From Gemmatimonadaceae bacterium (GTDB lineage: Bacteria; Gemmatimonadota; Gemmatimonadetes; Gemmatimonadales; Gemmatimonadaceae): a stretch of 64,000 nucleotides of DNA. The stretch spans positions 192,001-256,000 of the forward strand of contig JBJMOW010000004.1 in the NCBI GenBank assembly GCA_045803545.1, written 5' to 3'. The translations under genes were made by a program, and so were the position numbers. The notes under the pieces were generated by a model that saw only the letters and a list, made by a program, of their open reading frames with translations, was not told the DNA's origin and ran no database searches. Within the stretch, counting starts at the first letter, position 1, and each line of letters opens with the position of its first letter. This document shows positions 40,322 through 48,475 of this stretch, piece after piece.

Positions 40322-41098
40322 CTACTTCCAGACTCCCTCGCGAAAGCCGACGCGGTCGATCGGCTCACCGTTCCGGGGCGGAGTCTTCCACCACACTGTA
40401 ATCCGGCCGTGATTTAGCGCAACCCACGGCGCGACAGCGGCGACATCATCGGGCGTGACCTGGCCCCGCTGATCGAAGAGATGACCCGTGGAGTGGGACA
40501 GCACGATGCCGATCCTCGGCGTCGTTGAGTTCGGATCCTCGAACACCACCACCACGCTGTCGCCTCGGCCCGCTACACTCGCCGCCGAAGGCGCGCTCCC
40601 GTAAACGACGGGCACTGGCGAGTGAAACATTCCGCCCTTGTCCATCGAGTGCGCGAAGAAAACGCCGGCGCCGTCACTCGCTTCGACGAAATAGACGAGG
40701 TACACGTAGCCGCTGGCCGGATCGTAAGTGATTCCCGGCGCTGGCCGCTGGCAACCACGGCGCCCGGCATCACGCGCATCCACATCTATTGCGGAGTCCC
40801 ATCTAGCGCCTCTATCGGGCGATCGCTGCAAGGACAGAATTACGCTGCTGTCGGAGCGAACCGACCACCAGCTTCTAAACAGCTCGCTCGTGTCACCAGC
40901 GGTTCGTATCGACATCACACATTGCGCGACCGTACCCGTGGTCGTGGGCAGTCCGGCGCTGGCGATCGCGCTGCGCGTGTCCGGATCTCCAAGCTGGGAG
41001 GAGCGGTAGCCGACGTTCCCCCACTCAACCGGCTCGGACACGCAGCCAACAAGAAAGGTCAGAGCGACCACTGGGTACCAGCTGACAGTCTTGCGCAC
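40322..41098 (-). CDS. Lipoprotein with BNR/Asp-box (sialidase-like) repeats
   Basis: LVGC lipobox; SPDRGARW and SMDKGGMF Asp boxes; start trimmed to GTG 41098. Confidence 0.7.
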   Translation of the reverse strand: MRKTVSWYPVVALTFLVGCVSEPVEWGNVGYRSSQLGDPDTRSAIASAGLPTTTGTVAQCVMSIRTAGDTSELFRSWWSVRSDSSVILSLQRSPDRGARWDSAIDVDARDAGRRGCQRPAPGITYDPASGYVYLVYFVEASDGAGVFFAHSMDKGGMFHSPVPVVYGSAPSAASVAGRGDSVVVVFEDPNSTTPRIGIVLSHSTGHLFDQRGQVTPDDVAAVAPWVALNHGRITVWWKTPPRNGEPIDRVGFREGVWK

Positions 41099-41183
41099 GA
41101 CGCAGGTTAGCCCGGAGACATACGCCAGAGAAGCCCGCGCTAAGTATCTTTCGAGCGTAGTCGCCACCTCGAGGAACTTGCAA

Positions 41184-42944
41184 ATGGCTGCCTCCACAGT
41201 CCGACCGAAACGCGGCCCGGCCACTAAAGCCGCCGCTGATAAATCCCAGAAATCGCAGGCGACGAACGATGGTGCGTCGCCGCCAGTTGCCACCGAGCAA
41301 CCGATTCGTACCGCCACCGGCTTCAACGGAAATCGGCGGGTCCCGGCGCCAGTCAACGAGCCGATAAAGAGCTACGCGCCGGGCAGCGCCGAGCGGACCG
41401 CACTAAAGGAGCGGCTCCGCACCATGGCCGGCGAGAGGATCGAGATACCGCTCGTCATCGGCGGCAAAGAGGTCAGCACCGGAGATGTCGTCGATTCGGT
41501 GATGCCGCACAATCATCGACACGTGCTTGGCCAATGGCATCGCGCGCGCCCAGCCGATGTCGATGCCGCAATCAAGGCGGCGTCAGAAGCGGCGAAAGAT
41601 TGGGCCAACTGGTCATGGGAAGATCGCGCCGCAGTTTTTCTCAAGGCCGCCGAGCTGCTGGCGACGACGTGGCGCGCGACGCTCAACGCCGCGACGATGT
41701 TGGGTCAATCGAAGACTGCGTTCCAGGCGGAGATCGACGCGGCATGTGAGCTGATCGACTTCTGGCGCTTCAATCCGTTTTACGCGCAGCAGCTGTACGA
41801 CGAGCAGCCACTGAGCGACCACACGATGTGGAATCAGCTCGATTACCGACCGCTCGAAGGATTCGTCTATGCGGTGACGCCATTCAACTTCACCTCGATC
41901 GCTGGCAACCTGCCGACGGCCCCGGCGTTGATGGGCAACACCGTGATTTGGAAACCGGCGTCGAGCGCGATGATGAGCGCGCACTACATCATGAAGTTGC
42001 TGGAAGAGGCGGGGCTGCCGCCGGGCGTGATCAACTTCGTGGCCGGCGATCCGGCGATGATCTCCGACAAGCTGCTCGCGCATCGCGATTTGGCGGGCGT
42101 CCATTTCACCGGCAGCACGGCTGTGTTCAACAACATGTGGAAGACGATTGGCGCCAGTATGTCGCGCTACAGGTCCTATCCGAGAATCGTCGGTGAAACG
42201 GGCGGCAAGGATTTCATCGTCGCGCACCCGTCAGCGGATCCTGTTGCGCTCTCAGTCGCAATCGCGCGCGGCGGATTCGAGTACCAGGGACAGAAGTGCT
42301 CCGCGGTGAGCAGAGTGTACGTCCCGGAATCGATCTGGCCCGAAGTGCGTGATCGTACCGTCGCGATCATGAAGGAGCTCCGTATGGGCGACGTGACGGA
42401 TTTCCGGAACTTCATGGGTGCGGTTATCGACAAGAAGGCGTTTTCAAAGATTGGCGAGTATCTGGAGCACGGGAGATCGAACGCGAGCGTCGTGTCGGGC
42501 GGAGTCGCACGCGGTGAGCAGGGCTATTTCATCGAGCCGACTTTGATCGAGACCAAGGACCCGGCATTCCGGCTCCTTTGCGAAGAGATCTTTGGTCCGG
42601 TCGTGACAGCGCACGTCTATCCTGACAAGCGCTGGTCGGAGACGCTCAACATCGTCGATCAGACTTCCCCGTATGCACTGACAGGCTCGGTGTTCAGCAC
42701 CGATCGTCGCGCAATTCGCGAGGCGAACCTGGCACTGCGCAACGCCGCCGGAAATTTCTACATCAATGACAAGCCGACGGGTGCGGTAGTCGGCCAGCAG
42801 CCGTTCGGTGGCGCACGCGCTTCGGGCACAAACGACAAGGCCGGGTCCAAGCTCAATCTCGTGCGCTGGATCAGCGCGCGTACGGTCAAGGAGACCTTCT
42901 CGCCTCCGACCGATTATCGATATCCGTTCATGAGCGCGGAGTAA
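41184..42944 (+). CDS. pruA: L-glutamate gamma-semialdehyde (P5C) dehydrogenase
   Basis: ELIDFWRFN, PFNFT, FTGST, GETGGK, QGQKCSA, EEIFGP, QQPFGG.R.SGTNDK; start trimmed to ATG 41184. Confidence 0.95.
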   Translation: MAASTVRPKRGPATKAAADKSQKSQATNDGASPPVATEQPIRTATGFNGNRRVPAPVNEPIKSYAPGSAERTALKERLRTMAGERIEIPLVIGGKEVSTGDVVDSVMPHNHRHVLGQWHRARPADVDAAIKAASEAAKDWANWSWEDRAAVFLKAAELLATTWRATLNAATMLGQSKTAFQAEIDAACELIDFWRFNPFYAQQLYDEQPLSDHTMWNQLDYRPLEGFVYAVTPFNFTSIAGNLPTAPALMGNTVIWKPASSAMMSAHYIMKLLEEAGLPPGVINFVAGDPAMISDKLLAHRDLAGVHFTGSTAVFNNMWKTIGASMSRYRSYPRIVGETGGKDFIVAHPSADPVALSVAIARGGFEYQGQKCSAVSRVYVPESIWPEVRDRTVAIMKELRMGDVTDFRNFMGAVIDKKAFSKIGEYLEHGRSNASVVSGGVARGEQGYFIEPTLIETKDPAFRLLCEEIFGPVVTAHVYPDKRWSETLNIVDQTSPYALTGSVFSTDRRAIREANLALRNAAGNFYINDKPTGAVVGQQPFGGARASGTNDKAGSKLNLVRWISARTVKETFSPPTDYRYPFMSAE

Positions 42945-42974
42945 TCTGTGCGACTGCGAACTGCGCTGATTTTC

Positions 42975-43310
42975 CAGATCTCGGTGCGGTCAGTCGGCGA
43001 GGTGCGGGGCTGTCGGAGCTTCTCGCCCCGCTAACTCGGCGAAATCCGTATGCGTGGCGGTCACAGCTGACGCGGGGCTGCGCGACCTCCGCCAACCCCG
43101 CACCTCGCCTCCTTCCCTCGCTCGCGCGTAAACCCTGCGGCAGCCCGCGCGCCCAAGATTTTGCCACGGCGCAGGTACAGATCTCGATTGGAGAGGCAAG
43201 GGACGTTCCCTGAACTAATTCGCAGACCCGCCCGTTCCAGACCGCCACCCATATGGCTGTCCGACCGTAGCGGGTCGAGTTTTTTTCAGGGAATGTCCCT
43301 TGCCACGACC
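42975..43310 (+). repeat. Structured repeat / ncRNA-like element, copy 1
   Basis: Two long hairpins (42996-43109 and 43195-43304); homologous to 48098-48475 with compensatory changes. Confidence 0.8.
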
Positions 43311-43421
43311 TACCGCTATGTCTAGGAAACGACGATTTCACTGGCACAATGCTTGGGCACGCGAGGACGGCAGTCTGGTCCGCGTGTTGCTCTCTAGGTA
43401 GTCCCGTTTTTTTGCGACGAG

Positions 43422-46076
43422 ATGAGTACCGCTACAGAGCCACTGATCGACGCGGAGCAGTTGGAGGTTTCGCGAATCCGCGCCCTGCGCGGGCCCAACT
43501 ACTGGCGCCTCGCACCGGTCATCGCCTGCGACGTTCAACTCGGCAGCCTGGAGCACGTCAGCTCCGCTGACATCTCCGGATTCTACGAGCGCCTCACGGA
43601 GGCGCTGCCTACGCTCGCCGAGCATCACTGCACGCGACAGGAGCCGGGCGGATTTCTGGAGAGGTTGCGTGAGGGTACGCACCTCCCGCACATCCTCGAG
43701 CACGTTGCGCTGGAGCTGCAGTCGCTCACCGGCAGCGACGTCACCTTCGGGCGAGTTGTTCCTTCCGGTGATCCCCACACATGGTGGGTGATCGTCGCCT
43801 ACGAAGAAGAAGAGGTCGGGCTGCAGAGTATGCGCGACGCGGTGAAAATCATTCGCGCCTGCATCGCCGACCAGCCGATCGACGTCAACTCCATCGTCGA
43901 GCAGCTTCTCTCTCTGTACGAATCGGTTCGGCTCGGCCCATCGACGGCTGCGGTAGTCGAGGAGGCGAAACGACGCGGGATCCCCGTACGCCGTCTCAAC
44001 AACTACTCGCTCGTCCAGCTGGGACTCGGCAAGAATCTCCGGCGCATTCAGGCGACGCTATCGGACTATACGAGTGCGATCGCAGTCGAGATTGCCCAGG
44101 ACAAGGATGATACCAAGCGCGTGCTGGGCAACATCGGATTGCCGGTGCCGAAGGGTGACGTCGCGCGCTCACTCGAGCGTGCGCTGGAAATCGTCGACGA
44201 GGTCGGCTACCCAGTCATCCTGAAGCCGCTCGACGCCAGTCACGGGCGCGGCATTTCCGGTCGCATCGACAACGACGGGGCGCTGACTGAGGCGTGGGAG
44301 GACGCTCGCGAATTCGGCAATCGCATCGTCGTCGAGCAGTACACCGAAGGGCGCGACCATCGCGTGCTGGTCGTTAACGGACGAGTTGTCGCGTGCGCAG
44401 AGAGAATTCCAGCGCGCGTCATCGGAGATGGAACGAGTGCGATCGCTCAATTGATCGAGCGCGAGAACCGTGATCCGCGTCGAGGCGTCGGACATACCAA
44501 GACACTGACCAAGCTGCCGTCCGACTCGCGCACGGTCGCCTTCCTCGCCAAGCAGCAGCTCACGCTGCAATCGGTGCCGGCAAAGGGACAGGAAGTGTGT
44601 TTGCGCGGCACTGCCAATCTCTCTACGGGTGGGACTTCAATCGATCGCACCGACGAGATGCATCCGGATAACATCACTGCGTGTGAGATGGCGGCGGGCA
44701 TCATCGGACTCGACATCGCCGGCATTGATGTTCTGACGCGGGATATCTCCGTTCCATTCCGCGAGAACGGCGCAGTCATCATCGAGGTCAATGCGGGACC
44801 GGGGATCAGGATGCATACGCATCCGACAGAGGGTACGGCGCGAAACGTCGCGGCGCCGATCGTAGACATGCTATATCCGCCCGGCACCAAGGCAACGATT
44901 CCGGTGATTGCGGTCACTGGCACCAACGGCAAGACGACGACCGTTCGTCTCATCGCTCACCTCTTCCGACTCGGCGAGAACGTCGTCGGCTTCACCACCA
45001 CCGACGGCACCTATCTGCAGAACAGGCTCGTGCTCGAGGGTGATATGACCGGCCCGTTCTCCGCCAACATCATTCTGTCGAATCCAACTGTGGACATCGC
45101 CGTGCTCGAGACGGCGCGCGGCGGCCTGCTGCGCGCAGGACTCGGCTTCGACGAAGTCGACGTCGGTGTCGTGCTCAACGTCAGTGCCGATCATCTCGGC
45201 CTCCGGGGCATCAACACCGTCGAGCAACTCGCCGATGTCAAAGCGGTGGTCGCGGCGGTTGTGAAGCGCGAAGGACATGCGGTGCTCAATGCGGACGATC
45301 CGCTCGTATATGCGATGCGCGACCGCACGCCGGGAGATCTTGTTCTTTTCTCCACCAGGCCGGAGGGGGAAAGCGAAGAATTCGAGGATCACCTCTCACG
45401 GAACGGTATCGGCGCCCGGATCGAGAACGACACCTTTGTCATCCGCCGCGGACGGCTTCGTATTCCTATCGCGCCGGTTCGCGAAGTCCCGCTGATGCTC
45501 GGCGGCGCCGCCAGGTTCCAGCAGCAGAACATTCTCGCCGCAATCGCGACGGCGTATGTGCAAGGCATGCGGTACGACGACATTCGAGCGGGCCTGTTGT
45601 CGTTTTTCCCATCGCCGTCGTTGACCCCGGGCCGCCTCAACCTGATGCGAGTGCAGAACGGTCGCGTGCTCGTCGACTACGCTCACAATACCGCAGCGAT
45701 TCGCGGGCTCATGGATTTTGTTCAGTCGATCGACGCGACCCGGCGAATCGCTCTCGTCACCGCTCCGGGTGACCGAAGGGATGAGGATCTACGAGAAGTC
45801 GGGCGCCTCGTAGCGCATCTGGATTACGTGATCGTCAAGGAAGACCAAGAGCGGCGCGGCCGAGCGAAAGGAGACATCGCAGATCTGATCGTGGACGGCC
45901 TGATGGATGGAGGGATGAGAGAGAATCAATACGAGGTCATCTACACTGAGCAGGAGGCAATCCACCACGCGCTCGGCCGCATGAAAGACAACGACCTCGT
46001 GGTCATTCTCGCTGATGACGTCAAAGCCAGCATTGAGTGCGTGCGCAAGTATGCCCCTGAAGGCGCACGTTCGTGA
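43422..46076 (+). CDS. cphA: Cyanophycin synthetase CphA1
   Basis: LRGPNYW; N-domain Cx19HxxEH; LGPST; ATP-grasp (KPLD..HGRG, ANLSTGG, IEVNAGPG); Mur domain (VTGTNGKTT, ETARGG, PGRLN, DYAHN). Confidence 0.97.
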   Translation: MSTATEPLIDAEQLEVSRIRALRGPNYWRLAPVIACDVQLGSLEHVSSADISGFYERLTEALPTLAEHHCTRQEPGGFLERLREGTHLPHILEHVALELQSLTGSDVTFGRVVPSGDPHTWWVIVAYEEEEVGLQSMRDAVKIIRACIADQPIDVNSIVEQLLSLYESVRLGPSTAAVVEEAKRRGIPVRRLNNYSLVQLGLGKNLRRIQATLSDYTSAIAVEIAQDKDDTKRVLGNIGLPVPKGDVARSLERALEIVDEVGYPVILKPLDASHGRGISGRIDNDGALTEAWEDAREFGNRIVVEQYTEGRDHRVLVVNGRVVACAERIPARVIGDGTSAIAQLIERENRDPRRGVGHTKTLTKLPSDSRTVAFLAKQQLTLQSVPAKGQEVCLRGTANLSTGGTSIDRTDEMHPDNITACEMAAGIIGLDIAGIDVLTRDISVPFRENGAVIIEVNAGPGIRMHTHPTEGTARNVAAPIVDMLYPPGTKATIPVIAVTGTNGKTTTVRLIAHLFRLGENVVGFTTTDGTYLQNRLVLEGDMTGPFSANIILSNPTVDIAVLETARGGLLRAGLGFDEVDVGVVLNVSADHLGLRGINTVEQLADVKAVVAAVVKREGHAVLNADDPLVYAMRDRTPGDLVLFSTRPEGESEEFEDHLSRNGIGARIENDTFVIRRGRLRIPIAPVREVPLMLGGAARFQQQNILAAIATAYVQGMRYDDIRAGLLSFFPSPSLTPGRLNLMRVQNGRVLVDYAHNTAAIRGLMDFVQSIDATRRIALVTAPGDRRDEDLREVGRLVAHLDYVIVKEDQERRGRAKGDIADLIVDGLMDGGMRENQYEVIYTEQEAIHHALGRMKDNDLVVILADDVKASIECVRKYAPEGARS

Positions 46077-47185
46077 GCGGCGGTCGTTTCCCCGATCCAA
46101 AATCCGAGATCAGGATGACGACACTCCACGCCACGCGCGGAGCGAATTACTGGTCGCGGTTGTCGGTCATCCGCATGGATCTCAGCATCGGTGCATACGA
46201 GGAGATTTCTTCGGCTGACGTACCGGGTTTCACCCAATCGCTGGTGGCAACGATGCCCGGTTTGCGCGATCACCGGTGCAGCATCGGCGAGCCGGGTGGA
46301 TTCCTGATTCGACTCAAGCGCGGCACCTATTGCGCACACATCGTCGAGCACGTCGCGCTCGAGCTACAGGGGATGATCGGTTACGACGTGGGTTACGGCC
46401 GCACACGTGGTGGGGACAAAGTTGGCGATTACACGCTTATCTTCGAGCACGAGCACGAGGCAGTGGGAATGCGCGCTGCCGCGCTGGCACTGGAGATCGT
46501 GCAAGCGGCGTTCGCCGGCACGCTCAAATCAGTAGATCATGCCGTCGCCGAACTGGAAGCATTGTCGAAGACGCCCAAGACCCCGGCGCTCATTCAACAC
46601 GTGTTATGTGGCATTACGGGCGGCAGTTATCGGGATGAAACGAGAAGTGAGCTGGTGCGCCTCGGCTTCGGCAACGGGGAGCTGATCGTTGACGTCTCGC
46701 CCGCGTATGTCTTGCAGCAGGGACTCCCCTATTCGCGCGCTGACATCGGAATCATACTCGACTCTCATCTCACCGATGTTCCCGAGCGATACCAGGTGCA
46801 ACGACGCGCCGACCGATTGGTGTCGGTTCTTGCGGACGCGGTGCCTGAAGATGGCATCGTGATCGTTCCAGCAAAGAACTGGGAAGTGCAGGATCTCGTC
46901 CGGGATGCTGGCTGCCGCGTCGCAATTTTTGCAATCGATGGCGATGTCACGGCCCGTGACAAGAAAGTCGCACGTGCTTGCGCCACAGTCGAAGGGCGCC
47001 GGATCATGATCGAGCAGCTGGATACGGTGGTTGAGGGAGGCTGGCTCCACGACCGGGCGCCCGTCGCAGCTCAAGTCGCGGCGGCTCTTGCTGCGTTTAC
47101 GCTGAACGAGTTCGAGCCGGTCGCCGCTCAGCGGACAGACGGATCGCGACGCTCGTCGTTAGATGAGCGCGTGGGAGGTCCCTGA
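46073..47185 (+). CDS. CphA N-domain protein fused to a degenerate Mur-like remnant (no ATP-grasp domain)
   Basis: RGANYWS, HRCSIGEPGGF...CAHIVEHVALELQ; then LCGITGGS in place of the VTGTNGKT P-loop; GTGA overlap with cphA. Confidence 0.85.
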   Translation: MSGGRFPDPKSEIRMTTLHATRGANYWSRLSVIRMDLSIGAYEEISSADVPGFTQSLVATMPGLRDHRCSIGEPGGFLIRLKRGTYCAHIVEHVALELQGMIGYDVGYGRTRGGDKVGDYTLIFEHEHEAVGMRAAALALEIVQAAFAGTLKSVDHAVAELEALSKTPKTPALIQHVLCGITGGSYRDETRSELVRLGFGNGELIVDVSPAYVLQQGLPYSRADIGIILDSHLTDVPERYQVQRRADRLVSVLADAVPEDGIVIVPAKNWEVQDLVRDAGCRVAIFAIDGDVTARDKKVARACATVEGRRIMIEQLDTVVEGGWLHDRAPVAAQVAAALAAFTLNEFEPVAAQRTDGSRRSSLDERVGGP

Positions 47186-48084: not shown

Positions 48085-48097
48085 CTTCGGTTCCGTC

Positions 48098-48475
48098 TAG
48101 ATTTCCGCGCGGTCAGTCGGCGAGGTGCCGGGTCGCCGGAAATGCTCGCCGCGCCTGTCTAGCGCATCGTTGTTCCTGGCGTTCCAGGTGAGAGGGCGCG
48201 GCTGTGCGATGTTCCTTCGACCCGGCACCTCGCCTCCTTCCCACTCGCGTTAGTGCGACCAAGTGAGCGTCGCTCGCGCCGTGGTACTCAATGGGATCGT
48301 GCGCGCGGGCGCTAAGGAGGCGCGCCATGGCGGGGCACAGATCTCGACAGGGAGAGGCGAGGGGTGTTCTCTGAAAAACATCGCGCAGACCCGCCTCCGC
48401 TCAGAACGCCAACGACAATGATGTCGCAAGACAGCGGGTCGAGCAGTTTTTCAGAGAATGCCCCTCGCCTCGACC
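48098..48475 (+). repeat. Structured repeat / ncRNA-like element, copy 2
   Basis: Hairpins 48119-48234 and 48354-48471; same conserved blocks and same orientation as copy 1. Confidence 0.8.

Follow-up and report, generated by a model that had tools for sequence, protein, structure and literature searches.

A CphA derivative lacking the G domain, a candidate stand-alone endo-cyanophycinase between cphA and cphB in Gemmatimonadota

Introduction

A 64,000-nucleotide stretch of a Gemmatimonadaceae bacterium genome (GenBank assembly GCA_045803545.1, contig JBJMOW010000004.1, positions 192,001 to 256,000 of the forward strand; hereafter the window) carries an operon in which a short derivative of the cyanophycin synthetase gene cphA lies between a complete cphA and a cyanophycinase gene, cphB. 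The 370-residue product of this short gene keeps the N-terminal (N) domain of CphA1 with its hydrolase motif, lacks the ATP-grasp (G) domain, and ends in a dead remnant of the Mur-like domain (the M-core). A known catalytic site here stands apart from its synthetase, and the short gene belongs to a conserved, apparently undescribed family found in many soil Gemmatimonadota. The protein is probably an active enzyme, counting priming and degradative roles together. That it is a zinc endo-cyanophycinase priming the partner CphA in trans is a proposal we hold to be evenly balanced.

The reference throughout is SuCphA1 of Synechocystis UTEX2470 (PDB 7TXV/7LG5; Sharon et al. 2022, PMC9262961, selected parts of which are our source here and below). 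The operon and the parts of the short protein are as follows, in window coordinates.

43422..46076, + strand: partner cphA; 884 aa, complete synthetase (TIGR02068, N, ATP-grasp, Mur_M, Mur_C)
46073..47185, + strand: short cphA derivative; 370 aa, GTG start, N domain and dead M-core; candidate free-standing zinc endo-cyanophycinase
46109..46573, + strand: CphA1-type N domain (about residues 13-167); PF18921, E 5e-37; TIGR02068 positions 3-154; aligns to SuCphA1 8-134
46277..46351, + strand: Cx19HxxEH metallopeptidase motif, C69/H89/E92/H93 (C59/H79/E82/H83 in SuCphA1), by motif match
46592..47113, + strand: M-core remnant (residues 174-347), with no P-loop lysine, no D585/H586 and no M-lid
46610..46633, + strand: degenerate P-loop GITGGSYR (VTGTNGKT in CphA), by alignment
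46823..46837, + strand: S251 and D255, equivalents of S603/E607 in the SuCphA1 M domain, by alignment; cyanophycin contacts from PMC9262961
47182..48084, + strand: cphB cyanophycinase; probable CTG start, divergent subtype; TIGR02069 169 against 126.6 bits

The hydrolase site and the M-core remnant

The sole Pfam match of the short protein is PF18921 (residues 35-145, E 5e-37); neither ATP-grasp nor Mur domains were matched in that search. The motif spacing, C69-x19-H89-x-x-E92-H93, equals that of the neighbouring CphA (C70/H90/E93/H94), as the initial annotation of this DNA had claimed, and the two N domains are only 36% identical. The motif is kept in 120 of 120 closest homologues, in all 62 proteins from the scanned loci and in 17 of 18 distant representatives, at identities down to 29%. 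The residues corresponding to H57, S60, F67, R70, E87, G97, T101, Y110, S603 and E607 (SuCphA1 numbering) are all matched, E607 as Asp; the E90 position, variable across all groups, is Gly.

The C-terminal half was identified as an M-core because its profile matches CphA M-cores, for example the CphA of locus L042 at E 1e-10, and the predicted structure of the protein resembles the central domains of Mur ligases. The initial annotation had described a Mur-like remnant with a lost P-loop. That description stands, and the catalytic pair D585/H586 and the M-lid are gone as well. Across the family, GK[TS] never occurs at the P-loop column; the pattern appears in one of 167 rows, elsewhere in the protein. 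The fold model stops at chain position about 710, short of the lid (724-876), and reproduces the arrangement of N domain and M-core in SuCphA1 to 2.4 Å over 328 residues. In the model the N domain packs on the M-core as in 7TXV, and the N helix continues straight into the M-core strand with no G domain between them, which together with the Pfam result upholds the earlier claim of a missing ATP-grasp domain. The same annotation's description of a stand-alone N domain has to be revised: the M-core appears to be a conserved working part that would shield the hydrophobic N-domain (Y14) loop and provide the groove contacts equivalent to S603/E607. D255 is present in 120 of 120 homologues.

Three other identities were rejected. 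A CphA1 synthetase would need a G domain and an active M domain, and the TIGR02068 score is 173.7 bits against a cut-off of 850. A Mur ligase would have a P-loop ATP site and a C-terminal ligand domain, neither of which is found. CphA2 is defined by an active G domain and a missing N motif; the short protein is the reverse, so the earlier exclusion of CphA2 was correct.

A conserved family in a conserved operon

The 120 best homologues share 72-100% identity across 86-100% of their length, and the architecture is unchanged from 29 to 95% identity. A profile of the C-terminal half found the gene in at least 80 of 401 genomes of the host's taxonomic family, spread over 31 of 75 genera; across the phylum it turned up in 13 of 301 genomes, a fourteenth, weak match being an M-only gene. 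Where family members carry a taxon label they are all Gemmatimonadota, most records being unlabelled; some are named 'cyanophycin synthetase family protein' at NCBI. Against the three closest loci, the ratio of nonsynonymous to synonymous substitution (dN/dS) is 0.046-0.10 with dS near saturation, similar to that of cphA and cphB, and one unsaturated pair gives 0.07. A quick, unrooted N-domain tree places 44 short proteins in one group (Shimodaira–Hasegawa-like approximate likelihood ratio test, SH-aLRT, 93), separate from the partner synthetases, whose group has a long stem (SH-aLRT 99).

Synteny was scored in two sets of 30 and 40 loci, at least two loci being common to both. A cphA lies immediately upstream in 26/30 and 40/40 loci; of the four exceptions, two are contig ends and two are truly apart. 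The matching cphB subtype lies downstream in 26/30 and 38/40. The conserved, non-synthetic third component that had been suggested is thus supported by the intact N site, family spread and synteny. The whole genome, which is 93% complete, contains two PF18921 matches, both within this operon.

The gene junctions are equally tight. The GTG start of the short gene overlaps the cphA stop by four bases, in agreement with the overlap first reported. Database entries often begin at ATG 46118 instead (356 aa); GTG 46073 is the more probable start because a PDP motif 5′ of that ATG is conserved and because the GTG overlaps the cphA stop. The short gene had been said to abut cphB. The two are indeed adjacent, but in place of a bare abutment cphB likely starts at CTG 47182, overlapping the stop of the short gene by four bases. 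We favour this start because the conserved first strand (LIGG) precedes the first ATG (47308) and because relatives share such junctions, many of them with CTGA, GTGA or ATGA, the CTGA overlap being the commonest. Gene callers would therefore clip 42 residues off the CphB N-terminus.

A partner synthetase with an altered groove

The partner CphA scores 1124 bits to TIGR02068 (cut-off 850) and has the Pfam N, ATP-grasp, Mur_M and Mur_C domains, with canonical catalytic residues in G and M. It retains the metal motif and has an altered groove: T101V, R102V, Y110W, S603A and E607A (SuCphA1 numbering). This pattern was first noticed in 24 partners and then reproduced in the second locus set. Among 62 short proteins, S60, R102 and Y110 are each present in 62 and D/E607 in 61. 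Among 63 partner-type synthetases the counts are 34 for S60, one for R102, none for Y110 (mostly Trp) and none for E/D607 (mostly Ala), and T101 has become Val in 61. The other cphA genes of the phylum (n = 24) keep R102 in 23, Y110 in 24 and E607 in 23; in 38 diverse cphA representatives the figures are 35, 36 and 32. One partner CphA lacks H79, H83 and R70 and stands next to an intact short gene.

The short gene follows this synthetase type across genomes. Among 301 genomes of the phylum 84 have a cphA, and 16 have the altered type, defined by 61% or more identity to the window's CphA with three candidates scored per genome. The short gene is present in 13 of these 16, and in the remaining three a canonical cphA lies no more than about 5 kb away. 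The other 68 cphA genomes, which have canonical cphA only, yielded no short gene. In one genome (G271), a third cphA (L069 7544-10513) is 50% identical to the window's and has no N motif; the short gene of that genome could serve this third gene as well.

Proposed mechanism and alternatives

In SuCphA1 the N site is a slow zinc endopeptidase whose product is mostly (beta-Asp-Arg)4; a synthetase that depends on primers is primed in trans by the N domain on its own (PMC9262961). We propose that the short protein acts in the cytoplasm as a minimal zinc endo-cyanophycinase derived from CphA1, built from N domain plus the M-core it packs on and unable to polymerise. C69, H89 and H93 would hold the metal, with E92 as general base. 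It would be co-translated with synthetases of a clade in which the N-site groove no longer has the canonical polymer contacts, and the internal cuts of the short protein would yield short (beta-Asp-Arg)n pieces that serve the partner as primers in trans. The same cuts would supply the exo-acting CphB with extra chain ends. From these comparisons we infer that the short protein is active, that the N site is weak in the partner and that the role is priming. The initial annotation had offered both priming and granule opening; the evidence favours the first over the second, because the gene follows one synthetase clade with an altered substrate groove. The larger claim, that priming has moved into a separate enzyme to give a three-gene system of synthetase, endo-cutter and exo-cutter with a natural dedicated endo-cyanophycinase, is plausible, though we lean slightly against it.

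Several observations weigh against this proposal. The C/H/E/H ligand set is retained in 62 of 63 partner-type synthetases, and self-priming may persist; we infer a dedicated primer-maker in the face of the partner's own intact metal motif, the chief objection to it. V101, V102 and W110 are fixed in the partners and not scattered, which suggests a new constraint rather than decay. Short genes and partners form one clade each, so the association of gene and groove is close to a single evolutionary event, not 60, and carries no statistical result. R102 is not among the contacts listed in the parts of PMC9262961 used here and was added by this analysis; within the same parts, R102, Y110 and E607 are not among the residues mutated, and placement in cis aids priming in SuCphA1. 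P0265, a distant family member, lacks the motif. Coupling of the short gene to cphB is as tight as to cphA, and at two loci of Longimicrobium type, L043 and L053, the short gene accompanies cphB, separate from cphA. Finally, the short gene has a frame break in 5 of 70 loci, in three of which cphA is broken too.

The main rival, since new chain ends serve CphB too, is a degradative endo-cyanophycinase that nicks stored polymer for CphB while the partner CphA primes itself. The conserved four-base overlap with cphB, the cphB subtype that follows in nearly all loci, the two loci without cphA and the partner's retained metal motif all fit this explanation, as does a G-less N+M gene of Legionella adelaidensis that has an intact motif and precedes cyanophycinase and isoaspartyl peptidase genes. 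So does a patch of Arg residues (R127/R131/R134) on the helix that follows the groove, kept in the partner and replaced by A/E/Q in the short protein; this patch probably tethers the nascent chain. Nonetheless, linkage to the cphA clade (13/13 genomes; 26/30 and 40/40 loci) is at least as strong as linkage to cphB, which is absent downstream in 6 of 70 loci, and the short gene is present in 0 of 68 genomes with canonical cphA alone. Granules, moreover, resist the CphA1 N site, which is slow (PMC9262961). On balance we consider the degradative role unlikely.

A metal-holding adaptor that binds cyanophycin without cutting it, as a granule coat, chain-length limiter or bridge between CphA and CphB, would explain why surface patches of the M remnant that are dispensable for catalysis (PAKxW, DxTxxDKKVAR, GWLH) are strongly conserved. 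However, 62/62 proteins have the metal ligands together with E92, the general base, and non-catalytic N domains such as those of TmCphA1 and CphA2 lose the motif (PMC9262961), which makes a pure binder improbable. It is quite improbable, too, that the operon makes a variant polymer, with synthetase groove and CphB having diverged together to suit a different side chain or register and with the short protein editing or clearing canonical Asp-Arg chains. In the partner the acidic E607 is gone and the groove has become hydrophobic, and CphB has GGAED in 0/26 and DTHF for DQHF in 26/26. Against this, the partner's G and M catalytic residues are canonical, its score is far over the CphA1 equivalog cut-off, and a presumed P5C dehydrogenase gene (arginine/proline catabolism) often adjoins. 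A functionless tandem duplicate of the adjacent cphA, decaying in a single genome under relaxed selection, would account for the loss of two of three active sites and for the frame breaks, but is scarcely credible and already refuted by the spread over 80/401 genomes and 31/75 genera, the separate clade, the dN/dS of 0.046-0.10 and the architecture fixed at 29-95% identity.

Comparison with known systems

The short protein shares with SuCphA1 the Cx19HxxEH motif, its supporting residues and the S603/E607 contacts. In SuCphA1 this site is one of three in a tetrameric synthetase, whereas here it has its own gene product, which lacks G domain, ATP site and M-lid. CphA2, the cyanobacterial dipeptide polymerase (PDB 7TA5, 8FXH), is likewise a cut-down CphA1 whose M domain is dead and has neither P-loop nor lid (PMC9427784, PMC10273328). 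It is a mirror image of the short protein: in CphA2 G survives beside a dead N domain, and in the short protein the N site survives and G is missing. CphB (peptidase S51), encoded next door, also hydrolyses cyanophycin, but is a serine exopeptidase of unrelated fold that releases dipeptides, where the short protein is a predicted zinc endopeptidase.

Betaproteobacteria carry tandem cphA genes, of which we checked one pair, in Ralstonia wenshanensis.

L066 6995-9655 and 9709-12276 (CP076412.1): Ralstonia tandem cphA pair, N hydrolase motif in first copy only

The first copy has the motif and a canonical groove. Neither copy is shortened (886 and 855 aa), and the second is motif-less; in our operon, by contrast, the copy with the hydrolase site has 370 aa, and the metal ligands are still present in the synthetase. 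According to PMC10206079, a recognisable cyanophycinase occurs in 2.8% of 903 betaproteobacterial cphA1 genomes. Several representatives of 390-510 aa outside the alignment of the short clade also combine an N domain and M-core with an eroded or missing G domain. Together with the Legionella gene, these forms suggest that loss of G with N and M-core retained is recurrent. The same split may account for tandem cphA pairs and for forms of CphA without G found among unrelated bacteria, Betaproteobacteria included.

G-less genes of three kinds were seen in passing. The Legionella adelaidensis gene (L067 6001-7869, NZ_LR134428.1; 622 aa) has an intact motif, P-loop and DH and heads its gene set. 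A cphA-like gene of Deinococcus deserti (L068 5845-8019, NC_012528.1) has a dead N motif and an intact M. The commoner cluster of the phylum consists of, in order, cphB, a cphA with Cx21HxxEH and a different G-less accessory gene (degenerate N, intact P-loop and DH).

L057 1274-3331, L063 10436-12199, L064, L065 7065-8765: examples of the commoner phylum cluster

A literature search found no description of a natural G-less N-domain hydrolase or of cyanophycin genes of this phylum; it was made mostly at listing level, and its coverage did not extend to the CphA1 structure paper of 2021, the review of 2023 or the study of cphA/cphA' in Ralstonia eutropha, any of which could mention such proteins.

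The CphA1 N site has been described as locked in the synthetase, with no separate tuning of priming and polymerisation and a hydrolysis/synthesis balance that expression level cannot set; the excised N domain was insoluble before mutation, and priming raised polymer about twofold (PMC9262961). A naturally occurring N+M-core protein would provide a soluble endo-cyanophycinase ready-made. Possible uses are studies of the rate and specificity of the site, supply of primers in trans for cyanophycin production, and cutting of polymer to defined lengths. The operon also defines an apparently undescribed three-gene cyanophycin arrangement in a common soil phylum, and offers a testable reading of tandem cphA pairs that is relevant to the missing cyanophycinase of Betaproteobacteria.

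Neighbouring genes and repeats

The CphB subtype of the operon keeps the Ser-His-Glu motifs and is only about 30% identical to the other cphB of the phylum; two more S51 peptidases are encoded elsewhere in the genome. Other features lie around the operon.

41091-42944: aldehyde dehydrogenase (Pfam Aldedh)
42966-43315 and 48096-48470: repeat elements of 350-375 bases flanking the operon, in direct orientation and about 73% alike in the best stretch

We take the aldehyde dehydrogenase to be a P5C dehydrogenase. A close homologue occurs in 15 of 93 scanned loci, all with the short gene, many loci being too short to show one, and this neighbour may tie the operon to arginine breakdown. Elsewhere in the genome, an asparaginase-2 family gene (IaaA-like, G000:C2:952070-952819) and an IadA-like gene (G000:C4:1296225-1297295, below the TIGR01975 cut-off) could complete dipeptide breakdown. 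The flanking elements have no Rfam match at E 0.1. Each contains two long hairpin modules that recur at about half a dozen other genome sites, and they look like repetitive extragenic palindromic (REP) or miniature inverted-repeat transposable element (MITE) repeats. The upstream element terminates in a terminator-like stem (43259-43285).
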